From Oscillospiraceae bacterium (GTDB taxonomy: Bacteria; Bacillota; Clostridia; Christensenellales; UBA1242), in assembly GCA_963636895.1 (NCBI GenBank), contig CAVHMC010000002.1, positions 1 through 49,138 of the forward strand: a stretch of 49,138 nucleotides of DNA, written 5' to 3'. Below are positions 17,531 to 49,117 of the stretch, one piece after another. Below the pieces are notes generated by a model. The model was not told the DNA's origin. It searched no databases and was given only the letters and a program-made list of their open reading frames with translations. Both the position numbers and the translations under genes were made by a program. Each line of letters starts with the position of its first letter. The first letter of the stretch is position 1.

Positions 17531-17566
17531 CTACTTTCGACTGTTTGGTCGGGCGTAGTTTTTTTA
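17531..17566 (+). terminator. rho-independent terminator of the first adhesin gene
   Basis: CTACTTTCGAC (17531-17541) pairs with GTCGGGCGTAG (17548-17558) with one mismatch and two G-U pairs, around a 6-nt loop. TTTTTTTA follows. Confidence 0.6.
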
Positions 17567-18056
17567 TGTTTTGAGGGCGAAAATATAGAGAACCTTTAAA
17601 CGCAAAAACTAAAGAAATCAATAACAACTTAATAAAAATCTCCAAAAAATAAAAACTCAAAAAAAATAAAAAGCATAGAAAATAAAAAACATGCAACAAA
17701 TAAGAAAAAACGAAAAAAAAGATATAAGAGAAAAAATAGAAAAATGTAAAAACTTTAAATAGAAAAACAAACAAAAACCAAACAAAGAGATAAAGACAAA
17801 AACTAGAAAAACAAGACAACAAACAAAATGATAATTATCAACAAATTAAACGCGGTAATTGTTAGATAAAGTGGAATAAAGGGCCAAGTAAAATTAGTCA
17901 AAAAAATAGTTAAAAAAATTAACAAAAAAGTAAGCAAAAAAGTAAGCAAAACACACATCAAAAAAGTATAAAAAATACAAAAAAATAATAGAGAAAAAAC
18001 ATAGCAAAAAATAACAAAAAAATAATTAAAAAATAACAAAAAAAATAAAAAAATTT
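17567..18056. other. extreme A-skewed non-coding tract upstream of the giant gene promoter
   Basis: Hand count over 17581-18060 gives about 312 A, 75 T and 93 G+C out of 480. There are many A6-A8 runs and a local tandem AAAAAAGTAAGC x2 near 17925-17950. There is no plus-strand ORF. The minus-strand ORFs are poly-Phe/Leu composition artefacts. Confidence 0.85.
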
Positions 18057-18101
18057 TTAGAAAATTTTACAAATTTTTTCCAAAAAAGTTGTGTAAATTG
18101 T

Positions 18102-18130
18102 TTGTCGAAAAAATGGATATATTATATAAT
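18102..18130 (+). promoter_or_regulatory. candidate promoter of the giant gene
   Basis: TTGTCG (18102-18107), a 17-nt spacer, then TATAAT (18125-18130). An imperfect palindrome, GGATAT (18115-18120) with ATATCC (18132-18137), overlaps it. Confidence 0.6.
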
Positions 18131-45300: not shown

Positions 45301-45784
45301 ATCACTCTTTGTTGGCGGACAAGTGCCAGATTTCGACGTGGTATTCGAAAAAGACGGCAAGGAAGTAGGCGGAGTCGTTTCAAGTGGCAAATACACCGTT
45401 CGTGTAGTGTTCAAAAATGCCAACTACGAATGTACAATGACAAGAACTTTCGAAGTCTACCAAGCACAAAGTTACAAACTTTTGATTATCCTTTTGTCAG
45501 TTATTGGCGGGGTTGCAATGTTGTCCTTTATTGCTGTGGCGTCCGTAAAACTCAATAGAAAGAGATTTAAACGTGCTATCCAAAGAAAACAATTTGAAAC
45601 TCTCAAAGACGAGATAAACAAGACCAACCCAGAGATTTTGAATAGTCACAAGTCGCACCAAGAGTCTGCTCAAAACGAGAACGACTACGGCTATTACGAC
45701 GAGCAAGGCAATTGGCAATATTACGATGGCTATTACGACGAACAAGGCAATTGGCACGACTACCAAGACGGAAATAAAAAATAA
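18209..45784 (+). CDS. giant (9,191 aa) tail-anchored surface protein / putative adhesin: signal peptide, four Pmp-type beta-helix blocks, about 35 Ig/MBG-like repeats, C-terminal TM and cytoplasmic tail
   Basis: An uninterrupted 27,576-nt ORF in AT-rich, stop-rich DNA cannot arise by chance. A GGAGA RBS lies 6 nt before the ATG. The domain logic is consistent along the whole length (see sub-features). TAA stop. Confidence 0.95.
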   Translation: MKKGRLGFVVLLLVSLFCGGLFAVDWTGARVVNADSVESGAVVVYYVDDTSTAGSADGQSSTPFRTLQEAVNACNDYSDLSSVDSFKIVLKSSLFIGNVGTVLFENKTGKDIYILKDSTFSAKNGNTSMINFAQLESGKKLNLEFNGKNGKFIFEGKDIKGNEVVGTAQQSALCIGTKNSSGSGAVYVKDMSLTLTNVTFQNFKCKSNTYGLVNVGCKSTLTNVEFKNNQVRVDSYSEYNNMGYVFDTSYSTITPFEQKFDSCVFEGNIGGLISIENKNDSIKNVIIKDCTFKNNSIKFGALVNLDQIGVSNDKQSLADEKTSSLGFSGTEFVGNKALTTDTQGSSAFLIKATNMLRFAMEKSSTRVQAEGQSADEVGCNIFKNNEYESSTTDASYAVDISVATIEESKSAIQLSDLVVEDNNATKKANSSAVFFRLSTGKGSVNNVVAKNNRQNLFLSNEMTSMNFVDSTFQDDNTYGNGQYAIKIVDTLGQCNFTMKNCTINSFRAKTGKENAVVCVTNAFQTEFNNVTIKNIANQTNTSFAIKIMGCSNNKFIDINIDNCDNGIYVEKVGSGLFIDGVYYGFYMSTSKTEKMNTISNTRVVSIYLGVVKGMGETQALIKNLNLQNSGRIEYGESSSSVETTDEYSFELNNVHYYGRHRSKVESDDTTYGGLYGFKWLSLYNLYQVIIGNCSYHDNSKGSSCVAKVGDTATTDNSQFANSIMEITNIANYVMMSNCQFYNVDNTNTGNSLISISVKEDLTLQNCEFRGFNNNLSGEKSSSTLMSLKAKNISLTSNVTIDGYWAGNSAIRLSGIEAGSTAKLGDVTFTNNKLWISSDKMNECALLYIDANNFSSVKIGNTIFGSTMPDTDVTSGGNHITGASNYYGGLICINVDTSNTENKTIEMSNTVIAGNIVENGYALFASAKKSNITLSDVKLIHNDMLRTGESSVGGSTIRLTSFTKASLDNIKIEDSNIYGYGYDFSYVDEISLTNSTYSGNACAGTTSGSCAGAVSFYGTITNANIESCSFLDNKFGSNLIYYDNSNSAGTTIATLTFKKNQLKNNEAKRVSYFTSKVIVDSDYKGWLLNCTAGQTVELQANIISGNKANILSLTKITGSIIIDGGEITDNTIPKSNDGVASSFSNSCILNIQSILKTIKIIGGLEISRNTVVGNSSINSQDSKTYTFINISSCLDWTNAFYGKVELLYIDEIICKDNVSLASDMILTSLFRIYSVVETEIKNANIENNFSNATLDCVLSLPSENSKRFSFTSGTISGHDTVKNILSTSSGRQYAPQINFADSTISGNTFRSYAFGQGSGELYYTLSLNNLKFVYNVVTATSNDDTNLIYLGLVHVRNEKMSIDKCEFLYNVSSNVSTAGVYFNNARGSYSYELKNCVFTGNKGANGSAVYVADGVTVTLTSCTVDLNESTSGAIYSRSKLTLNDCTFYKNNASANGGVINGSNIYVNGCTFKENSAKFGGAIYLVSSGTLIIDKGYQGRTIFDGNYVKTPDSSSKTTLSGGALYLGSKSVTLSYGNLFQNCYISGGSSDTMQGGAIYVGTNASLNLEKNSKNGYVSEFINNGKSSNYGGAIANFGSIYMKDVVASGNIAQNGGFVYQPINESNVASLEIYDSTISSCYAEGTTDTTGLGGGLYLSSKVIVSGCTFVDNVANSYGGAIYYKETRTKEEGIDILNCTFSGSTANSCHGTAIAIANGNTEYVVINNVTVNNTSGESGIFVGDGNVQIEDLETTADIKVGMEVAIANTRTSVVYLGRKIVLPQASSGAGLTTNVALKLFSVLLDESTIAISPTFEGVVLESDGSYVIKSSDFNKLQSCNTKYKLSFKINDGTNFTKNTVNAVAVDSGSVCVANDFYGFSTDKNSPTSALQVFAYNYGSNVEILYGTSIDACTSTEWITGLDLGVLHTIYYEVKVDSVTKAKGQGYVFMENAIGIYVAVLPTIGTVQVDTSLDNGAISGGEVVEYGDTSARIAGTFSWALDSNGQVVSPTETGLNRFNIVFTPKDSKYASITFGVVVEVVGYGVVYYGVKDTGSLVTQEMYKTAEDAKKNDNPIITRGILDSDIFTEMMKKMADGGTIYMFKNCAYPVNLYVDGKTIYIKKYASDADPSTLSTTKYNEHTNSAMFSFVTMVSGSISFGSANMTGKIIIDGDGKKSYYPLIELGGFDTTIVNASFYNGVEITNFNGIGCSAIGVVGYINLTIYGLKATNCNYILPRNLDNDDVTVPIEKVAGRNNPILYYGGAVLSTRTGYIADNSSNTRYTPRVTIEDFEADNCSSESYGGAICITSMPVGCQFYINKDSRGNIAMGMLCDNTRYYPISIANMTISNCSAVKGGGAFATLCATGLVIKNMTLTNNSTNGNGGAIYLKYAESMYKGEISNNHADKYGGGIYVENQPTSVATANSLTDTEKQNTTYYDVELGINAQNTLDILSNSAGLLGGGVYAENGLTMSYANIISNTITIGETFSGDLGDWCFYGAGIYANCEKTTNQYKLDTVRLTLSNCVVKNNKIINNNANVIKLAGAGIYAKEISLSNVTITQNSIILNVKTTSTIFMQGAGLSLQKINSTSNTIENCEITNNNIKVFVSTEAFVGGAGVSLASSTPDSNGIENMLTIKNSDTSNNFFDIASASDKVVSKYSQVLVEALYNSEEDSATTTVVLTLDGVTSYSTSKEGGIGSIGIGVSGSQPILSSKINVSLIRLTGLLNITSALEATSFTSGMPGGCTNLHDDYEIDYYCSIYAYDLDKDSVVKINITEENGVEKYQIVQFDQEYARSLSSTDSDIYELGANAINEQNKVTIDVLSSLRNIFDFTIVKTMSEGETKIEYKKFYSTIGLISVDTYSTTIYGPFAVYAQKTSDTTLLEEIFWDPINGNDSYSGSTAKYSVKTLENAVKKSISGATIYLINSLEITKNTTLTAKNRIIQRNSNNKITIRAGVTLTLQDIVFDESNATTQYGTLIDILTGGTLVVETGTNITNLQSNNSQAFSSIINNRGNLIINGGQFTLNSVNGSGGIIYSTGAIEINDGFFSDNFALQGSVAWIEAGEVIINGGSFVRNRQYSSSDVTSLVVQKGGVFYVNEKATLTINDGSFEGNNAMLGAVIYSVGKVNITGGVFYNNNARTAKDYTDDLYTYYAPGFGGVGYFEKGTANVSGGNFEANVATNGAVFVVGSVNTSAQLDISSKAVFYNNSAITLTGARDKYLTSFTSATTWSKNNLSNKIINNMKFGSGGVIFGYQNATINISGGDINSNISANYGGALYVLGSTLVISGGAIRNNRIDFYGSVESDNSEYNSRKNRDTKGGAIYYEGMENLEGFSFVNNEIDADTQAITNTTISSIKNPRFVIKGGVISGNLANQGSAIYLATGSSNAYYASLVISGGEIVSNGEFEFRYYGTSQAQQVNGGAIYAVANTFIEMKDDAYIACNKAFFAGAIYTDGNILVNGGRIENNETNNETSTTASAIYAGGENGSVVIRDGIISNNLAHAGKLYSTPAVYVVAGGLYLGENAYVFGNNNEYILEGSIKQRQIDILFEKLVDGSKKNVFIYDNFSSSAKIGFYSQETNIGTKKLRFAQVNPKACDSAVVKVFENTSDNTIYLALIGTGLYIGAQEIKTVKYTASDYIARRDGDVHGIDITIEEASNTIEPEFLCLEEGVINYYGNDLSKVYEAKKNDSEWVKENPKVASGTYYVLFRFYDTLTSTYLTDANGNDFYDYRVIKITTKDYFVEKNPTVTTELIAGVNYVASGGSENVYVIRFVENDWKVVDSLNNAIVLDGVFMLASTSIKFDTIGKQYMLVKYIPEDKTYAEKTFAIEVFVSAQDIYYSESKGTFYLDENLTLKAFTTDSSIAPTMKDALDALTANGSIVIKDGSYKVTSNEEWNIVNKTIVFKRGTNAKDALIETVKGSLTINATGTGSLTIDGGALWFEEVSSGKWNDSDPTKIDVSKQYQQTSGLQSRGALIYAKSNVTISGKVILQNNENTDNGGAIYAESGVVTLSNGVSILSNMAQNGGAIYIGNTADLNIKNSGEQVVIKQNATRSGFGGAIYVSTGRELAIDNANITTNLARGSGGAIYAFDAKSLNLTNTIIDNCKSTDSTIYVSVSSKDTVLTLKDCNFTVPTDVDVKGIIYSGNKTKMAGVVFEGENYFRGSILLDENIFIHDKSSALKEDSAVGVKRLNDEESIADILVALSNTSSDDYSSKYSLISDNTKLVNITTHNADNYYNEKGYANYVTINGKQIATNTLQIGGGFEASILPYQGATNTYTIKMEYGKLYGDYFNANNTKISNVKLSDGTYGEIDLTQEKVGYKKISYELNLNSDNKTMNMSYQVVYNAGIKIIATWEQAQPTFEVEVYTFDEKIETEDSKGTVVGYKGLNKVEAVKGTYNTTYGKQVLVKVTITNRNDTDFSYRVNSANGEFTQERDSEDDVYFAYILKEASIYDFTIISIATNNVTQDDKRSEQKVTVNIAKAIIDLKLDDSVLSRTFDGNDMSIQVSDLIVDTKLEYNDSKDDLNLAIVTSAKEKGDSGATARNVGTYNCVVSVGNNNYQLSSATLAWHITPLQLKISHYIDIWDNNKIYTNDFQGGSHYLVPCFENVKGSDKVNVSISTQNYSTSETETLIYQFSNVDPYTLLNDLIKPTSHSLKAPFFSKIGKYIGNIEKIYNIDNNYKLSDDEQDTTYTYTWNITKSQAFISKFVLSDGTPTNKEEIIANTIVGGAYDMGSKTYSGNTKYLSVIMKDSVGNEITSGLTLELTLYNNTTNVKVGETKTVIVGVGDPFDTSKFVSFTNAGTYRLEVKVTEGYDMDTKSVYKAIFNLEKEQLTLQWALGIATSESEEVSEYTRNESINGTYHLAISYLAKEVYAYVTGATVNGEAFNIVSDMFEYAKGLDEVFTTNCKNLSLRDNTKNLEVERVVRLTSTYSDNYEIVSNASCLVFISKTKLSVTWDSNTQKEFTGSDILFEPTVKTNLNEVVNVSSFYDLSGNKYTAINSYTCTIQGTQALEDSNYYIATEDTTCAWSIIPKEITLEWYAVSYTDENGNGQVKLGSKTFSFVYDGKYYDLMANPYGLIAGRTDVSVALEGSGAQKNVRSGAVSSYTKVAKDLTGSDSGYYTIKADSIEKTWQITPCPVIIEWTVERDSYETSNLSSVREVYYTGKDRVVTFTSSGFINTTEKSSWDKTASITTKYRSSAISNLVDASGTKEVGIYITSVTSNDSNYKVDISSGSVTWEIKKAPMTIEWQWLDSNVDIYKNKKLLPAGDTDYNGTSVVYTSQANYLTTVKAVASNDATMSITQFSPTYKIYGGDPINTKDIKNAGTYEVTVILANETDRNHYELTNPSMTFAIDPATIGFEWKSSADSYFKEGASGVPEAEVLINSSTGEAKAQYYYFEEKDPAKSDGSVISYKVEFLYNNVIKQTNIENVTPKPETSSTLIAFKDFLANNSKDAGTYTIRITGMSSTNNYVFDKNSSTNSITYVIKPKQLDESTRITLVYSDGTSYTYDGTQKTIDVQISNNFALGVVFDNYKLTGTTTAKYAGNYNFKVEITDPNYIFSGTGTNVSSDLTWTIGKREATIVWHNTKLETISAGYMFDYTGAFQGPVAPKVINAVEGDVFDFTYDTTSPYVKEAREVGKYTTRLNSVENKNYYLSDNTRDFSWEIVNTRISFKWSASNTSFAKDSDDVQTATYTANPMYFMPTTTSIFNTDREDITFRIDVYYSDTATSFTGAGTDTASTCFTISDINTSGFNYNPTKTCINVGYYMAKVTLVNAGNYQLSNDNTNVFMWRISQRTVNFSWTKTSVTYNGTQQNPTATVLGAQSTADLGQFSLTFQFSSLSTEDWGDSSPKNAGQYRVKVYSLGKAEVLSNYTFNANDYITFTINKKSLGDITFIRGDSSSSLIYEGSAKYYLLDTTKVSDMGVESSDISNIVFNHTYYYKSVKGTTFNELSEGGTSCKNAGSYRLEILLGDDTTSANYKLNNNTTQTWQIVQKSITFNWYVENEKDYQTKENMPFNIIYCGKEIVVKAKAVIDNVEQSTEIVGSYGNNIGKDVATKTAEVLSLSSQNLYDNNYTFSKDTNSNYQKSWSIVKRAVSISWACSVAGDTSYQKVYNGNAYYYYPTFEGTSKIEGDDLAFQTTITRAGISISTFTNCVDAGSYTASVSGMSGVSSGNYELSSSANKQQSWTIMPQELTVEADGSTSVTYDSAEHRFKAKITSGLVVTDDVQLLYTYTVDGEEQQKVYFVSATNVGTYTATLSLGGEKAGNYTIKSDNQSLVFTITKCQLTISWSSSSYSYNFNGLEQHPEPTIVNPIDVSTSTIVSYKYKAQASGSTGYTLETISPIHAGNYQMTAQLNDPTNYEWSGTNETSFTINQVTPAINIYPIAMGSASGSGSNTTALIVVSGCGDDAPYGSVILTVGTTVYSDLNLTQLPLTTVSSDGKTTRFDGVGNNDTAKEILQTYYSNVGCSYCIYSYPETNAEGYTPTAKYTAGKDDSKYSMESNYTNVSVPQAGQQFVPQGNNQEDIYLYYESSNSIQPVTSSSTISGYKYGDRVTFYITGGSDITYETNTTTQDTYNNFYRIMINSQVATPSASSNSVEVIENGISIAKVTYVSLLESKDGVTTINGLKILQVEVQFLKPTGANALYVGAYKKGGDYVDASSNKKNFAQVASNPGKFFIDKKAITINVPDATMNYGDKSSLAFAKDGSGNLVRYTLDSSGAIVQPYQFLSNFSLTSGGLVRDTDKADIISALKPKIIEKASTKTGYNSKVVTLETLYNDYYIFTTSGNTYGGLLITGRKLTASDVIVTLQDEANLCYVGEKLQPTITSIKTTDTNSTTLGSDSYDIKDYGEYINAGVGVITIQFKGDYTGTIERQYKINKLDISKATKNDTSSTKTKLFTSKDGTYYLCYDAKLEEEVSYTGETIVKNFDSVFTIVKNDATIKTFAYKALPSDIKITSFSNQNAGRANIKIEALSNSTNFTGTKDIYFNITACTVNSEDITSYTLSDGNSNHEIVFSGLNNNPNVLEVKYKTNISLAYTIVDWYKYDTTSKKYSKVTQAETMNVGTYYVGLNITGERNAYYVNYTGTVYLEYSVTQFNINSLDVTIEIEEGQDLQYTGLSINPTIKVYWRAPVVTTDSNGNVTFNGVYTQTLLEDNRDYDYSSAGEGTNINAGKNSGIIKIKAKSSNFTGEKQALFDIEKRDLYAISDQNLTPNWKNSYSYTGSQIIINGTELPTISWGTKTLSFGTDYVILPAGEGTNINQGKGSITIRGTGTNYTGEKALTFTISKLDVNNNQNKFNVTLEKSEYYYTGDAIQPQVLYVTFNNKLLTAGVDYNETINYGSENTNASTNKAKVYITFGQDLASNFTGKLEWTFEIKPLSIESADFVVRENNVEDGATSVMSQITDVVYTGSDITKTIYLYAKFGNTYKKLYTQAMLQDTSTNPDYEYSFSNNQNVGEATITISGLNNYTGTIKKSFKINALDMFDLIKNGQATVAGESGESIKVSSQEYTRSVIVPDVSIAWGIKTLVRNTDYTLTAVFDNCDNVNVSTNNKTRIDFMGNYTGSYTFTFEITQRSLASATISIPDIEYTGSDITSDDLAKLFSLYDDNYLLSYGTDYTININSTDKKNVGPKPYEIVGTGNYTGKIENLTFNIVARNIANHVADFTLSTSNVYYTGSVINLADTKKGYNVEFKYLGTTLSSNIDGGDYSFGTYENATNAGTAYVTITGKGNFTGSAKFAFTIERQDLKSLPTKNIKINQSYRYTGKAVCPVPTAVTDLYGNTVSPEQYTIQYKNNISVSSENSKPSLTLIFKGNYSGTVTKEFEIAKTYLTASDLVYTPANLVYTGKTIVPTFEQIGSLSIKRDDNGKTILVTQDDIQSITEYTGNSLNSKTVDNTNVSSGAKCGAFEITFGGYNNIYTGTVVLSFNITQLDISSDLVTIDSNLTKDETYTGASITKTFDGKIKVGDVSLDGNYNVQSYTSNTDVGVVTITIEGTNNLTGTRKIQFNIVPFDIGSATVGAIASQTYNYGREVTLDSLKVNVTLSSGARTLEKNTEYRIAGYENNTQVGTATVYIQGVGNFTGTITMTFKITTVEIGTNYELKETKTYTYSGEGIRLGDQRDENGKSYFVLVVDGLDEIKIYDDKCKYANNLKASTVDSKASVSFNISNFSNNYASKDITIEYEIERLAYDSSYISVPDIPTQLAGATPITITFEQNTFGEIKYKETTLVEGIDYTLEQFPTNASAIADTIGGVRITFIGNFTGEVVKRFAIKRNQPTQEDFGEQNFKIVPNDATSTTDVIRYGEYGTLADLKIVNNSGVDSSSIVWFEDPTTPINFVGTITVYVRYQPDDTYDAGLFELPLTVEKGIYKDEVNVYADKKDDEQYFTIKYKKGIVLTDVELPEGFSWQYQVINASDIKSGTRYSTDGIEFKTYDGEPLNTSLTYYEETTSLEFTIGNEQYVEKTFKAKYNYNSAYYQDVKDIVVKVRLLKGDLDPSVFRYRDTTVTYSPTITASSIKLPTTDWPWTWIGNQKGFSSSVLKVENSPYTFYMTFDPAKTNESGVPVNGGFPESVYGNKLNYNTLTVEAKIYVNRADYTQNKINSALAEYVVSTVTYKKDLRTSEIDLNLPQGFDLRDENQLLSYGENDVYVVYNKESKFDNNYNPYGESVTNSISVKVLVISPTLVGSLEEGGGEVVTTATGGLAISRTYGDNLANNRAIPFGVTYFNYITGSWEAVNGSSEWVDGSEKLLSVGVITRQVKFTPSDTNFISGKEYITFDVEVLISQQGNEGELRQSLAFASDEQYMAYTPSSTLANINKIQRVEGSTSAVVFNAFDDVFYTYKYITLDKDGHYTPQDVKNATEYELTNSTVLSAKGNSEGAYRSLYIIYANFTRGGCVYYNFGEDYKPSYELYIYKATLNVNLPSITKTYGDLSISGNIEDVGATGLSALENGKDYVFNVRDSNGNAVYLNYATPAGVYTMEITLVDKNGSLSNNYDFDKTKTATYTIEKLAITDFKLDHGVLYENGSILNDKITITFDTSLFVGGQVPDFDVVFEKDGKEVGGVVSSGKYTVRVVFKNANYECTMTRTFEVYQAQSYKLLIILLSVIGGVAMLSFIAVASVKLNRKRFKRAIQRKQFETLKDEINKTNPEILNSHKSHQESAQNENDYGYYDEQGNWQYYDGYYDEQGNWHDYQDGNKK
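18311..23450 (+). other. beta-helix block 1 (long CxFxxN-type repeats ending in a dense GGAIY cluster at ~22380-23400)
   Basis: Recurrent motifs include KDCTFKNN, KNCTINSF, GNCSYHDN, SNCQFYNV, QNCEFRGF, KNCVFTGN, NDCTFYKN, NGCTFKEN, SGCTFVDN and LNCTFSGS. They are interleaved with NGSAVYV, FGGAIYLVSSG, SGGALYLGS, QGGAIYVGT, YGGAIANFG, LGGGLYLSS and YGGAIYYKE. These are the two signature tetrapeptides (GGA[ILV], FxxN) of the polymorphic-membrane-protein repeat family. Confidence 0.75.
24700..26150 (+). other. beta-helix block 2
   Basis: YGGAICITS, KGGGAFATL, GNGGAIYLKY, KYGGGIYVEN, LLGGGVYAEN, YGAGIYAN, LAGAGIYAKE and VGGAGVSLAS, interleaved with NCS/NNS-type turns. Boundaries are approximate. 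Confidence 0.65.
27050..28790 (+). other. beta-helix block 3
   Basis: SGGIIYSTG, KGGVFYVNE, MLGAVIYSVG, GFGGVGYFEKG, NYGGALYVLGS, TKGGAIYYEG, NQGSAIYLATG, VNGGAIYAVAN, FAGAIYTDG and VAGGLYLGEN, with repeated INGG/ISGG turns. Boundaries are approximate. Confidence 0.65.
30000..30600 (+). other. beta-helix block 4 (short)
   Basis: SRGALIYAKS, DNGGAIYAESG, QNGGAIYIGNT, GFGGAIYVSTG and GSGGAIYAFDA. Boundaries are approximate. Confidence 0.65.
31620..37330 (+). repeat. class I Ig/MBG-like tandem repeats (about 18 units, roughly 105 aa each)
   Basis: By eye there are about 19 repeat junctions of the form aromatic-x-I-x-x-[KPQ]-x-[LI] (LAWHITPLQL, YTWNITKSQA, CAWSIIPKEI, KTWQITPCPV, VTWEIKKAPM, LTWTIGKREA, FSWEIVNTRI, FMWRISQRTV, QTWQIVQKSI, KSWSIVKRAV and others). 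Each is preceded by N[AV]G[TSQ]Y and followed by a [YF]xG/YDG/YNG strand (TFDGND, FVYDGKYY, YTYDGTQK, VTYNGTQQ). This matches the pattern I know as the MBG (YGX-type) domain. The family name comes from memory, not from a search. Confidence 0.6.
38210..43010 (+). repeat. class II MBG-like tandem repeats (about 16-18 units, ~90 aa period)
   Basis: About 16 copies of the closing motif G-[ND]-[YF]-T-G followed by x-F-x-I (GDYTGTIERQYKI, GNYTGKIENLTFNI, GNFTGSAKFAFTI, GNFTGTITMTFKI and others). Each repeat opens with a YTG strand (LQYTGLSINP, YSYTGSQII, YYYTGDAIQP, VVYTGSDIT, IEYTGSDIT). A 24-nt identical DNA segment at 39677-39700 and 39947-39970 gives a 270-nt (90-aa) period. Confidence 0.65.
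43010..45470 (+). repeat. C-terminal Ig-like repeats of a third type (membrane-proximal stalk)
   Basis: A recurring pattern reads ...L-P-x-G-F-x-W / LPTTDWPWTW / LPQGFDL ... Y-x-P ... NY ... V-x-V-x-[KR]. One module, GSWEAVNGSSEWVDG...VKFTPSDTNF, resembles GTFSWALDSNG...FTPKDSKY at ~24170-24300 and GTWSFVDEN...FTPSNT in the 14427 paralogue. Confidence 0.5.
45479..45547 (+). other. C-terminal transmembrane tail anchor of the giant protein
   Basis: LLIILLSVIGGVAMLSFIAVASV (23 hydrophobic residues) is immediately followed by the basic stop-transfer sequence KLNRKRFKRAIQRK. No LPXTG or other sorting motif is present. Confidence 0.8.
45548..45781 (+). other. predicted cytoplasmic tail with a duplicated YYDEQGNW motif
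   Basis: A positive-inside segment is followed by DYGYYDEQGNWQYYDGYYDEQGNWHDYQDGNKK. The two YYDEQGNW copies are also near-identical at the DNA level (45688-45770). Confidence 0.65.
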
Positions 45785-45976
45785 AACCTACAAGACGACA
45801 AAGGAAATAATAGACCTTATTGTACGTGAGCCCCCCTTGCTATTGGGGCTATGATTTAACCTATCACACACACTCCCCCTTGCTATTGGGGCTAAATGGG
45901 GGTAGTAAAAACACCGTCCCCTACAAGAGTGTGTGAGACTAACCTATTCTACAAAGGTGTGTGAGACCAACCTATT

Positions 45977-46202
45977 AATACCGTCCCTTGTAAGGGAAGG
46001 TGTCACGCAGTGACGGAAGGGTAGTAAAGTTTGAACTCCTACTCGCCTAACTAAAAGGTAAAAATACCGTCCCTTGTAAGGGAAGGTGTCACGCAGTGAC
46101 GGAAGGGTAGTAAAGTTTGAACTCTTACTCGCCTAACTAAAAGGTAAAAAGATTTTACAACCCCCCAGTCCTAACGGACAGCCCCCCTTGCTATTGGGGC
46201 TA
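45977..46202. repeat. 226-bp long direct repeat, copy 1 (two 86-nt units plus the AGATTTTACAACCCCCCAGTCCTAACGGACAGCCCCCCTTGCTATTGGGGCTA module)
   Basis: Base-for-base identical to 46317-46542 by visual alignment, at an offset of 340 nt. Confidence 0.9.
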
Positions 46203-46316
46203 TGATTTGACCTATCACACACACTCCCCCTTGCTATTGGGGTTATGATTTAACCTATCACACACACTCCCCCTTGCGAGGGGGAGTGTCGGCAAAGCCG
46301 ACGAGGGGGTAGTAAA

Positions 46317-46542
46317 AATACCGTCCCTTGTAAGGGAAGGTGTCACGCAGTGACGGAAGGGTAGTAAAGTTTGAACTCCTACTCGCCTAACTAAAAGGTA
46401 AAAATACCGTCCCTTGTAAGGGAAGGTGTCACGCAGTGACGGAAGGGTAGTAAAGTTTGAACTCTTACTCGCCTAACTAAAAGGTAAAAAGATTTTACAA
46501 CCCCCCAGTCCTAACGGACAGCCCCCCTTGCTATTGGGGCTA
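46317..46542. repeat. 226-bp long direct repeat, copy 2
   Basis: Identical to 45977-46202. Within each copy the two 86-nt units differ at one position (C/T at 46039 vs 46125 and at 46379 vs 46465). Confidence 0.9.
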
Positions 46543-46628
46543 AATGGGGGGTAGTAAACCTTTTCCCCACCCTAAACAAAACCTTTTCAATTTGTGCAAA
46601 AATAAATAAAAAAATATCGTTTTTTTAC

Positions 46629-46657
46629 TTGACACCTTTAAAAAAGTCCTATATAAT
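46629..46657 (+). promoter_or_regulatory. consensus sigma-A type promoter of the lipoprotein gene
   Basis: TTGACA (46629-46634), a 17-nt spacer, then TATAAT (46652-46657). Confidence 0.7.
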
Positions 46658-46663
46658 CATTTA

Positions 46664-46861
46664 CGTAGAATGTTTTAGCACCTTTTATTCAAACAAAATT
46701 TGGTAAGGCAGTAACATTTTTCGGGCGTTTGACATAAAAAATCTAAAGTGCGAAGACGTAATACACTTATGGGCTCGGAGATTGTTCTGCCTTTTTTTAT
46801 CTGTGGCGGATAAGGCAAAGCATATTGTACGACCCCAAAAATTTTAAAAGGAGAAATTTAT
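46664..46861 (+). promoter_or_regulatory. long (~200 nt) structured 5' leader with competing pairings and an internal U7 tract
   Basis: AAGGCAGTAACA (46705-46716) can pair with TGTTCTGCCTT (46783-46793) over 11 bp with one bulge, followed directly by a T7 run (46792-46798). The same TGCCTT can instead pair with AAGGCA at 46812-46817. I recognise no known riboswitch consensus. Confidence 0.4.
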
Positions 46862-48979
46862 ATGAAAAAAGCAAAAAGTAAAATTTTATCGGCGTTGTTG
46901 TTCGCGTTGCTTATTGTTCCTTGCATGCTTATCGTTACCGCTTGCGGAGAAGAGCACAAGGCAGTATCCGACTGGTCCAGCAATGCTACACATCACTGGC
47001 ATGCTTGCTCGGTAAAAGACTGCAAAGAGCATGAAGGTGAAAAAGCTTTTAATTATGCAGAACATACCGGCATGGAAGATCACATTTGCGACGTTTGCGG
47101 ATATAAAGAACATAAGGCAACTACAACTTATGGCAAAGACGACACAAAACACTGGTTTACATGCCAAATCGAGGGTTGCAAAGAACATTTTGGAGAAGCA
47201 ACTCATAATTACGACGCAACTACACACGAATGTGTTTGCGGAAAGGTTGACCCAGCCTATGTGGCAAAAATTACTACTACAGGTGAAGCGCCTACCACAA
47301 CTTACTACAAAAGTTTGCAAGAGGCTATAAATGATGCAAGTGCAGGAGCCACGGTAACACTTGTAAAAAATACTTCTATAGATAGTTATGTTACGGTTTC
47401 AGGGAAAAAATTGACACTCGACTTGGGTGGCAAGAGCTTGACCTCTGCTAAGACAGGTATCTATGCAACAGGCGCAAATACAGATTTAACTTTGAAGAAT
47501 GGTACGATTAACTCGGGTGCTACAGGTGTATTTTTGGACAATCAAGCCAAAGTTACAGTAAATGGAGACGTCACGATTGGTTCGAATAGTTCTAAGAGTA
47601 ATAAAGAAGCTGGCATAATTATTTTATCCAAAGCAACACTTGAAATGAATGGTAAGATAAATGGCTTTGGCTATGGTATTGCTGGAAATGGCGGGAAGAA
47701 GGGTGAGACGGAAGATAAAAACGAAGATTATGGTGGCATCACTATAACCCTTGGTTCAACAGCTGAAATTATTGCTTCAGACGATGCTTTGTTCATGCCA
47801 AGCAGTGGGACTTTGACAATCGCCGAGGGTGCTAGACTCACAGCGGGAGACACTGCTTTGTATGTAAAATGTGGCAACGTAACGATAAATGGCGGTACGT
47901 TTGTTACGACAAGTGAAAAAACACCTTATAAACCAACTACTAGCGGTTGCTATCCAACAGGGGCAGCAGTAGTTATCGACACTGTCAACGGTGACAGTTA
48001 CATTGGTGGAAACCCAACAGTCACAATCAATGGCGGAACTTTCACTGTTGCACAAGTTGAAGATGGCAAGACTCCAGCAAATGCTATAGAATATTATCAC
48101 TTGGCTGATGAAACTTATTCTGCTACAATATCTTATGGTGATAAAGTAACTGCTAGAGCGGTAGAATATGTCTATACTCCAGCTGGCGACGGAACTGAAG
48201 CTAAAGTTACACCAGTTGTTACTTATGTTTCGACTTTCGCTGAACTCACTTCCGCAATTGCCGACGCAAATGTAAAAACAGTTGTGCTTACTGAAGACAT
48301 AACAGCAAATACTACGAGCTCAGGTGAAGACGGACACGTGACGGTTTCTAGAAAAGTTACTCTTGACCTTAATGGAAAAACCTTGAAAGGTAGTGGATAT
48401 TGGGGAGTTCTTCATATCGTTGGTGGAGACTTAACGGTTGAAGGCTCTAAAGACGGCAGTGCTGTAGTCGCAAACGGCGCTTGGGGAGAAATAACCGGTG
48501 GAAACGGTTATCGTGCTATGGCTGTCTATGCTTATGGCGGTAAAGTTACTATTAATGGTGGTCATTTCTCGAATACTATCCCAGAAACTTCTAGGAGGGC
48601 ATATAATGATTTGATTTATGCTAAAAATAACACTGATAACAATCAAAAAGTTGGAGCTGAAATAATCATAAATGGTGGTACTTTTGAAAGCGTTACATCA
48701 GGTTGGGTTTTGAATATCAGTGATGGGAGTAAAAGTGGCGAAACAAGTTCTACTATCACGGTTTATGGCGGAAAGTTTAAAAAGTTTAACCCTGAAACAA
48801 ACAAGGGCTTTGACACTCTAGAGTCGGGAGAGGAAGAAGGGAAAGTAAATAGGACGGGAGGTCAATCGGACGGTTCCTTCGTTGCAACTGACTACAAAGT
48901 GGTAAAAGAAATAAAAGATAATGTTGATTGGTATACTGTGGTTGAAAAAACTGCAGAAGAGAAAGCAAAAGAAGGCTAA
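46862..48979 (+). CDS. surface lipoprotein with a duplicated Cys/His-rich module and a beta-helix-like body
   Basis: A GGAGA RBS is present. The signal peptide has the lipobox IVTA-C (Cys28 at 46943-46945). Two copies of H-x-W-x-x-C-x4-CKEH-x-GE...H-x-C-x-CG are present. Recurrent turns are VTINGGTF, VTINGGHF, IIINGGTF and ITVYGGKF. There is an internal duplication (VTLVKN...KKLTLDLGGKSLTS and VVLTED...RKVTLDLNGKTLKGS). Confidence 0.88.
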   Translation: MKKAKSKILSALLFALLIVPCMLIVTACGEEHKAVSDWSSNATHHWHACSVKDCKEHEGEKAFNYAEHTGMEDHICDVCGYKEHKATTTYGKDDTKHWFTCQIEGCKEHFGEATHNYDATTHECVCGKVDPAYVAKITTTGEAPTTTYYKSLQEAINDASAGATVTLVKNTSIDSYVTVSGKKLTLDLGGKSLTSAKTGIYATGANTDLTLKNGTINSGATGVFLDNQAKVTVNGDVTIGSNSSKSNKEAGIIILSKATLEMNGKINGFGYGIAGNGGKKGETEDKNEDYGGITITLGSTAEIIASDDALFMPSSGTLTIAEGARLTAGDTALYVKCGNVTINGGTFVTTSEKTPYKPTTSGCYPTGAAVVIDTVNGDSYIGGNPTVTINGGTFTVAQVEDGKTPANAIEYYHLADETYSATISYGDKVTARAVEYVYTPAGDGTEAKVTPVVTYVSTFAELTSAIADANVKTVVLTEDITANTTSSGEDGHVTVSRKVTLDLNGKTLKGSGYWGVLHIVGGDLTVEGSKDGSAVVANGAWGEITGGNGYRAMAVYAYGGKVTINGGHFSNTIPETSRRAYNDLIYAKNNTDNNQKVGAEIIINGGTFESVTSGWVLNISDGSKSGETSSTITVYGGKFKKFNPETNKGFDTLESGEEEGKVNRTGGQSDGSFVATDYKVVKEIKDNVDWYTVVEKTAEEKAKEG

Positions 48980-49042
48980 TGTCTAATCGCACGAAACGTT
49001 TAATTAACTTGTTTGAAACATTTTAAACACAGTTTTAATTTA

Positions 49043-49076
49043 AAAAATCAGGTTCACTCAACCTGATTTTTTATTT
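49043..49076 (+). terminator. rho-independent terminator of the lipoprotein gene
   Basis: AAAAATCAGGTT (49043-49054) pairs with AACCTGATTTTT (49060-49071) around the loop CACTC. A T-rich run follows. Confidence 0.85.
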
Positions 49077-49089
49077 TCACAATATTTTT

Positions 49090-49117
49090 AATTTAATTTA
49101 ATTTAATTTAATTTAAT
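49090..49117. repeat. pentanucleotide microsatellite (AATTT)x5 plus AAT
   Basis: Direct reading of 49090-49114, with a partial unit to 49117. It lies just downstream of the terminator near the window end. Confidence 0.8.

Follow-up and report, generated by a model that had tools for sequence, protein, structure and literature searches.

The closest described relatives, in kind, of the DNA treated here are short non-coding repeats of bacterial intergenic regions. The BOX element (boxA-boxBn-boxC) is a composite of an opener, a variable number of boxB units and a closer (Croucher et al. 2011, PMC3049150). BOX, RUP and SPRITE are small-repeat families that cluster and insert into each other, and for miniature inverted-repeat transposable elements, or MITEs, an AT-rich composition is usual (PMC3049150). 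Repetitive extragenic palindromes (REP), bacterial interspersed mosaic elements (BIME) and BOX have been reported as barriers to 3' exonucleases and, occasionally, as attenuators (PMC3049150, in addition to established knowledge). The subject of this work is a repeat mosaic of about 730 nt (45829-46560) situated 3' of a giant gene on contig CAVHMC010000002.1 of an Oscillospiraceae bacterium (GenBank assembly GCA_963636895.1). The whole 49-kb contig (49,138 nt) was analyzed and is called the window hereafter.

We read the mosaic, with a probability of about one half, as a cluster of lineage-specific structured intergenic repeats of the BOX/BIME/MITE kind that has been enlarged by local duplication. 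The sequence family to which the modules belong is previously undescribed; the kind of element is already familiar in other bacteria. This reading is based on the opener-(unit)n-closer organization with inverted termini, on the presence of several unrelated modules that share an end motif, and on the contrast in GC content. It is also based on the conservation of the module sequence across lineages, together with the different module order found in a related locus (L003).

Modular organization and inverted termini

The limits given for the intergenic region by a first-pass annotation of this DNA, the stop of the giant open reading frame (ORF) at 45784 and the next promoter at 46629, were confirmed. 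The description of the mosaic as far richer in GC than its surroundings also held, since its GC content is 47.8%, that of the window 37.3%, that of the giant gene 38.5% and that of the 11 other intergenic regions 16-27%. Of the 28 stretches of at least five C or G in the window, 12 fall inside its 730 nt. None of the unit lengths (86, 43 and 28 nt) is divisible by three and the longest ORF comprises 43 amino acids (aa), which indicates that the mosaic is non-coding, in agreement with the lack of an ORF noticed at first pass. It is a real patchwork of short, GC-rich, hairpin-forming repeat modules. A CRISPR array was ruled out, as had been proposed, because the sequence between repeats is itself repeated and there are no unique spacers.

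From left to right, the mosaic is composed of a partial composite element (E1), a variant head of the 86-nt unit followed by a pair of 28-nt units, two copies of the 86-nt unit (unit A), a complete composite (E2), two further copies of unit A, and a minimal composite (E3). The four copies of unit A that had been counted earlier form two tandem pairs with 98% matches on the + strand, at 45977-46148 (score 341) and 46317-46488 (score 351). The second pair is identical to the first, and within both pairs the two copies differ by the same single C/T position. Each unit A consists of a 48-nt head, TAAA, a 30-nt tail (GTTTGAACTCYTACTCGCCTAACTAAAAGG) and again TAAA. The head contains the hairpins ACC-G-TCCCT/TGTA/AGGGA-A-GGT and GTCAC/GCA/GTGAC, and ends in GGGTAG.

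The tandem unit described at first pass as about 45 nt long is indeed arranged in tandem, but its length is 43 nt. This unit (B) is present on the + strand in three full copies (45832-45874, 46183-46225 and 46226-46268) and in partial ones; it forms a tandem array of 2.2 copies at 46183-46277, whereas 45829-45894 holds one full and one partial copy. The segment 45910-45976 (+ strand) contains a variant start of unit A (AACACCGTCCCCTACAAG, 87% identical to 46305-46334) and then the two 28-nt units, whose number was rightly given before (45921-45976, 89% identity). These are of the form CTACAA(A)GNGTGTGTGAGACYAACCTATT, and they include GAGTGTGTGAGA, a stretch complementary to the tail in which the B units end (TCACACACACTC). 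The segment as a whole shows no structure beyond that of shuffled sequences (z +0.4 on the + strand and +1.1 on the - strand). The GTCC-TAAC-GGAC hairpin between C6 runs, C6-AGTCCTAACGGACAG-C6, was also recovered at its two sites, 46161-46187 and 46501-46527.

The 226 nt at 45977-46202 recur with 100% identity at 46317-46542, 340 nt further on. Much of the repetition of the mosaic is thus one recent higher-order duplication: a segment of about 340 nt was duplicated very recently, which enlarged the array. The copy number of this 340-nt block is that of the assembly, in which a perfect 226-nt repeat is difficult for short reads.

The two pairs of unit A are unrelated to the composites built on the 43-nt unit and are interleaved with them, and both share the right-end motif GGGTAG-TAAA. 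The decamer GGGTAGTAAA closes seven modules, with 0.11 occurrences expected. TAAA follows every module (45906-46558) and precedes three of the four heads of unit A, the number of independent insertions being small. It could be a target-site duplication, a preferred target, or a part of the termini themselves. The reverse complement of the decamer matches the + strand motif TTTAC[A/T]ACCCCC, of which five exact copies exist, all of them in the mosaic, two on the + strand (46154 and 46494) and three on the - strand (45898-45909, 46305-46316 and 46547-46558). These copies stand in inverted arrangement, contrary to the earlier statement that the region has no inverted terminal ends. When one mismatch was allowed, the window gave six matches (0.47 expected), of which one, at 2536, lies outside the mosaic.

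E2 is a complete composite (46154-46316, + strand, 163 nt) and consists of an opener, TTTACAACCCCCC-AGTCCTAACGGAC, two B units (46183-46225 and 46226-46268) and a 48-nt closer (46269-46316). The closer carries the hairpins ACTCCCCC/TTGCGA/GGGGGAGT and GTCGGC/AAA/GCCGAC, and it ends in GGGGGTAGTAAA. Folded as RNA, E2 reaches -74.4 kcal/mol (z -7.1; z -6.2 as DNA), and a terminal stem closes the element. E3 (46494-46558, + strand, 65 nt), likewise complete, is composed of the opener and a 36-nt closer; its termini, TTTACAACCCCCC and GGGGGGTAGTAAA, pair with each other (-34 kcal/mol, z -3.5), and its right end adjoins a unique flank, CCTTTTCCCCACCC, that is conserved in L003. In both E2 and E3 the termini are paired and the internal hairpins fold independently. 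E1 (45817-45909, + strand) is a partial composite that has kept its right terminus and whose left end is degenerate (TTGTACGTGAGCCCCCC); its B unit (45832-45874) is followed by a 35-nt closer (45875-45909) that also ends in GGGGGTAGTAAA. E1 does not close on folding (z 0.07). The number of full 43-nt units therefore varies from none (E3) to one (E1) and two (E2). The closer alone has a strong structure on both strands (z -3.9 on + and -4.3 on -).

A related locus in another sample

The closest homologue of the lipoprotein/adhesin encoded downstream of the mosaic, P0002, shows 62% identity over the N-terminal 186 aa and is diverged beyond. It is encoded on L003, a 3-kb Logan contig from a sample and run other than SRR13434599. 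The host of the window is very rare in public data: for its pyruvate kinase, HU and S18, exact sequences turned up in SRR13434599 and nowhere else, on short Logan contigs syntenic with the window. Their absence from the sample of L003 is consistent with L003 belonging to a distinct lineage, but it is not proof.

The first 47 nt of L003, ATACCGTCCCTTGTAAGGGAAGGTGTCACGCAGTGACGGAAGGGTAG, belong to the head of unit A; they agree with the window at 47 of 47 positions and are fused directly to the orthologous promoter-proximal flank. The remaining identities between both loci are 81% in the spacer, 79% in the promoter, and 73-83% in the coding sequence (73% at third codon positions). The probability of 47/47 is about 3e-5 at a background of 80% (0.8^47) and about 0.12 at the rate of the leader of the downstream gene. 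Against flanks of about 80% identity, this indicates that the module sequence is constrained or has recently spread, and is not neutral debris. The presence of the unit A head in L003 also indicates that the modules are genuine and were not created by the assembly of the present contig.

These data bear on a simpler explanation, in which the mosaic is a neutral by-product of local duplication or slippage in tolerant intergenic DNA, with neither function nor mobility. The perfect 226-nt duplicate and the tandem pairs show that local duplication occurs, and no other copy of the modules exists in the contig. However, the 47/47 identity contrasts with that of about 80% in flanking non-coding DNA (P about 3e-5), the GC content of the mosaic is twice that of other intergenic DNA, and the inverted termini and closed folds are far beyond those of shuffled sequences. 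We therefore consider a neutral origin quite improbable. The first-pass annotation had named it as the reading to be favored if the modules occurred nowhere else and were not transcribed across, and the identity found in L003 contradicts it.

The module at the junction with the flank is the closer of E3 in the window and the head of unit A in L003, both ending in GGGTAG. A different module on the same flank indicates that the mosaic has undergone remodelling from one lineage to another, for which recombination at the common GGGTAG(TAAA) ends is a plausible cause. If arrays were reshaped in this way, the occurrence of another module on the same flank in a related genome would be accounted for. 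The left end of L003 lies within 1-2 bases of the left boundary of the module; such a start fits a branch of the assembly graph at a repeat, which is no more than a hint.

The first-pass annotation had also recommended a comparison of orthologous loci. A module is present in L003, but the modules are absent from three loci that encode more distant homologues of the downstream protein (L004-L006, 34-35% identity) and from L007, the single homologue detected for the C-terminus of the giant protein.

Conservation at one orthologous site could also mean that the modules constitute a locus-specific, sequence-constrained cis element, which would provide binding sites or processing/termination sites for the giant transcript or for the promoter of the downstream adhesin gene, 70 nt away, under purifying selection and with local amplification only. 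In favor of this explanation, the modules lie beside the same promoter in L003, and 47/47 identity exceeds what the upkeep of hairpins needs. Moreover, the contig holds one locus only, none of the collections searched contains a copy, and the giant gene has no canonical terminator of its own. On the other hand, at least three unrelated types of module with common termini and inverted ends typify dispersed families, the module content differs between the window and L003, and the perfect 226-nt duplicate points to ongoing turnover rather than to a fixed layout; the conservation, in turn, is based on a single comparison of 47 nt. Such a cis element is the principal alternative; it appears unlikely, although far from negligible.

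Some features of the gene downstream of the mosaic were observed in the same comparison. Its 5' leader (46658-46815; 152-310 in L003) is 95.6% identical between both loci, whereas promoter, spacer and coding sequence are 67-83% identical. The leader folds into a hairpin of about 90 nt (AAGGCAG...CUGCCUU) followed by U7, resembles an attenuator, has no match in Rfam, and is a candidate for an uncharacterised cis-regulatory leader. The downstream protein (46862-48979) presents a lipobox (VTAC) and a Cys/His-rich N-terminal region of 186 aa, while the rest, including a pectate-lyase-like adhesive domain, is almost unalignable to P0002. As judged from sequence, this is the pattern of a conserved anchor with a quickly diverging surface part. 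The exact 705-aa protein is not on record.

Transcription signals around the giant gene

The giant gene (18209-45784, + strand) codes for a surface protein of 9191 aa, and its mRNA would measure 27.6 kb. The protein contains a signal peptide, repeats of the beta-helix/PMP type and a C-terminal membrane anchor. At the end of its cytoplasmic tail, which follows the membrane helix of the C-terminus, YYDEQGNW motifs are encoded by a tandem duplication of 39 nt (45684-45761). The next promoter (46629-46657) is of the sigma-70 type and matches the consensus at 12/12 positions.

No intrinsic terminator consisting of a GC-rich hairpin and a U-tract was found on the + strand between 45785 and 46860, so that the giant gene is without a canonical terminator across the 845 nt up to the next promoter. 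A stacked terminator, which had been one of the roles suggested at first pass, is hence not supported in its canonical sense. In contrast, two neighbours have textbook terminators soon after their stops, the 1016-aa gene (17536-17553 and a T-run) and the downstream 705-aa gene (49042-49076), and in L007, which encodes the homologue of the C-terminus of the giant protein (42% identity), the terminator is ordinary and modules are absent. No promoter-like site was found inside the mosaic on either strand. The lack of a terminator before the mosaic and of a promoter within it suggests that the mosaic is probably transcribed as the 3' untranslated region (3' UTR) of the giant gene.

Small structured RNAs in an array were a further role suggested in the first-pass annotation. 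In favor of independently expressed small RNAs, the fold of the region as a whole surpasses that of shuffled sequences (z -5.7 on the + strand and -6.0 on the - strand), but both strands fold equally well, as DNA palindromes do, and the folding therefore tells neither which strand is active nor if the active form is RNA or DNA. The region lacks internal promoters and a + strand terminator, and the only sites with a hairpin and a T-tract are three weak ones (5 bp and T5) inside unit A, on the - strand. A search of Rfam 15 at the gathering threshold returned just two tRNAs in the window and nothing in the mosaic. At E<=10 the best models in the region were mir-506 (30 bits, against a gathering score of 84.5) and Moco (23.8 against 36). 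As the first-pass annotation had supposed in calling the sequences unfamiliar, no described RNA or repeat family is thus matched. A small-RNA array is very improbable.

The preferred reading, that of a cluster of structured intergenic repeats, can be joined to these signals in a tentative model. The modules would be, or would derive from, non-autonomous elements, and their conserved termini and sequence would serve for recognition in trans. RNA polymerase would run from the giant gene into the mosaic, which would become the 3' untranslated end of the 27.6-kb mRNA. There, closed and stable structures of the E2/E3 type could hinder exonucleases that advance from 3' to 5', and they may also slow or partly stop RNA polymerase ahead of the next promoter.

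A more specialized role would agree with the 47/47 identity at the same locus, the lack of a canonical terminator and the fact that the 49 kb contain no further copy. Instead of being selfish repeats, the modules might form a conserved, sequence-specific cis-acting system of giant surface-protein genes in this lineage, either a non-canonical array for termination, processing or 3' protection that works with a dedicated protein and on which the completion or stability of the 27.6-kb mRNA would depend, or an upstream array that controls the neighbouring variable adhesin gene. We regard this as doubtful.

In the remainder of the window, the region 17560-18080, about 500 nt 5' of the giant gene, is extremely A-rich on its + strand (AT skew 0.495, GC about 21%) and holds degenerate tandem repeats of 11-12 nt and 23 nt (CAAAAAAATAA); a promoter-like site (18102-18130) comes just after it. 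The other genes are mainly of housekeeping type (QueH, a P-type ATPase, TetR, pyruvate kinase, S6-SSB-S18, NifU-IscS-Rrf2, a deaminase, a signal peptidase, DegV and HU), together with two more surface proteins. Simple tandem repeats occupy the two ends of the contig (TAAAAATTAGG x2.8 at 2-32, TTTAA x6.2 at 49087-49117), which is probably the reason why the assembly stops there.

Searches for further copies and comparison with known systems

Several results weigh against a family of dispersed intergenic repeats. Dispersal is the defining property of such families and it is unproven here, since the modules are confined to one locus of the 49-kb contig: no 14-mer of the modules occurs elsewhere in it on either strand, nor in any of the 11 other intergenic regions (0/11). 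No match to the modules was obtained in phage and plasmid collections (searched in 'distant' mode), in the JGI metagenomes with a 23-mer of unit A, or in IMG/VR, where four modules were scanned. The GTDB species genomes yielded no copy beyond one chance match, and a 434-aa concatenate of stop-free translations of the modules matched none of 5.8 billion proteins at E<=10. There is no transposase or Y1/RAYT gene in the window, which agrees with the first-pass annotation as far as transposases are concerned, and no clear target-site duplication is visible in the mosaic. In addition, the copy in L003 is at the orthologous site and a vertically inherited, locus-specific element fits it equally well, and the position of the mosaic in the 3' UTR of the giant mRNA, where the argument leans on it, is wholly inferred. 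Finally, the hairpins that had been reported in nearly every module are all present in sequence and folds, but the 43-nt and 28-nt units alone fold no better than shuffled sequences and the fold of the 86-nt unit is only marginal (z -2.0 on the + strand and -1.6 on the - strand), so that clear structure is limited to the closer and to the composites with closed ends (z -3.5 to -7.1).

Two sets of matches were rejected in the course of these searches. The chance match in GTDB, obtained with the core of the 43-nt unit, is in a metagenome-assembled genome of Bacteroidota and its flanks contain no other module. An 85-codon frame of the - strand gave three HMMER matches among 1.84 billion representatives, all of them artefacts inflated by repeats (a repeat with a period of 55 aa, an 82-nt satellite in L010, and a genuine repeat protein) without DNA similarity to the modules. 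In L010 (427-2196), a 589-aa 'protein' is the three-frame read-through of this unrelated 82-nt tandem satellite, an example of the false ORFs and repeat-inflated HMMER matches to which arrays of this sort give rise. A 24-mer of the conserved downstream leader, aimed at orthologous loci, had no match in the JGI metagenomes either.

If the preferred reading is true, the mosaic would add a new family to the structured repeats of BOX/BIME-like type, its host being an uncultured bacterium of low GC content, probably wall-less and hardly represented in public data. The modules could then serve for an annotation model, as such repeats break assemblies and create false ORFs, and as a strain marker, and the locus would be a natural case in which to see how a 27.6-kb transcript ends and is protected. 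No long-standing question is opened by it, and a dedicated sequence-specific 3' element for giant genes would be the possibility of greater interest.

Among known systems, the STAR repeats of Staphylococcus aureus are made of a 14-nt GC-rich motif at intervals of about 40 nt, and their copy number varies between strains. They share with the mosaic the condition of GC-rich short intergenic repeats in a low-GC genome. However, they are without the composite architecture of opener and closer, and there is no sequence similarity between them and the mosaic.

The BIME/REP sequences of enterobacteria and pseudomonads are also intergenic mosaics of GC-rich palindromic units and specific linker motifs, with GTAG beside the hairpins, and they are often located in 3' untranslated regions. 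REPs have a known stabilising effect on upstream mRNA, and in some cases they attenuate transcription. They differ from the mosaic in that they alternate in orientation, whereas its modules are all direct, and the units described here are longer and heterogeneous and belong to a host of another phylum. The imperfect palindrome of 20-40 nt that stands right after GTAG in REP/REPIN sequences, often in inverted pairs, was not found in the mosaic.

This likeness leads to another explanation, in which the modules would derive from REP/RAYT or IS200/IS605 elements, their hairpins and GTAG being recognised as single-stranded DNA by an HUH Y1 transposase encoded elsewhere. GTAG is part of the conserved terminal motif of seven modules, hairpins are numerous, the modules are all in one orientation, and the TAAA after each of them could be the target. 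In classical REPs, however, GTAG reportedly precedes the palindrome directly; on the + strand of the mosaic it is 3' of the hairpins and at least 8 nt from the next one. No Y1 transposase is encoded in the window, and the likeness is one of resemblance only. An origin of this kind is improbable.

The MITEs Correia/NEMIS (Neisseria) and RUP (pneumococcus) are, like the elements of the mosaic, short, non-autonomous, base-paired and intergenic, with terminal inverted repeats, and they can act on co-transcribed mRNA. As in MITEs, the ends of E2 and E3 are formed by terminal inverted repeats (TTTAC[A/T]ACCCCC). Unlike them, the mosaic is GC-rich, and neither a clear target-site duplication nor a parent insertion sequence with matching ends was identified in its contig.

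With the BOX elements of Streptococcus pneumoniae and S. suis no sequence relation was seen, and the BOXA1R primer, a weak test, was unmatched at up to three mismatches. BOX is dispersed in more than 100 copies per genome, whereas one locus is found in the 49-kb contig, and the host is not a streptococcus. In spite of these differences, the middle unit folds alone in BOX as it does in the composites described here, BOX is co-transcribed with neighbouring genes (PMC3049150), as the mosaic probably is, and both are non-coding composites of less than 200 nt with a tandem middle unit of about 45 nt and complementary closing ends, and both are intergenic in a low-GC genome of Gram-positive type and clustered with other repeat families. 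E2 and E3 present the architecture of BOX, namely a 5' module, a variable tandem middle, a 3' module and complementary ends. The BOX-like modular organization perceived in the first-pass annotation is therefore borne out by two blocks, each with an opener, from none to two full 43-nt units, and a closer, whose ends pair.

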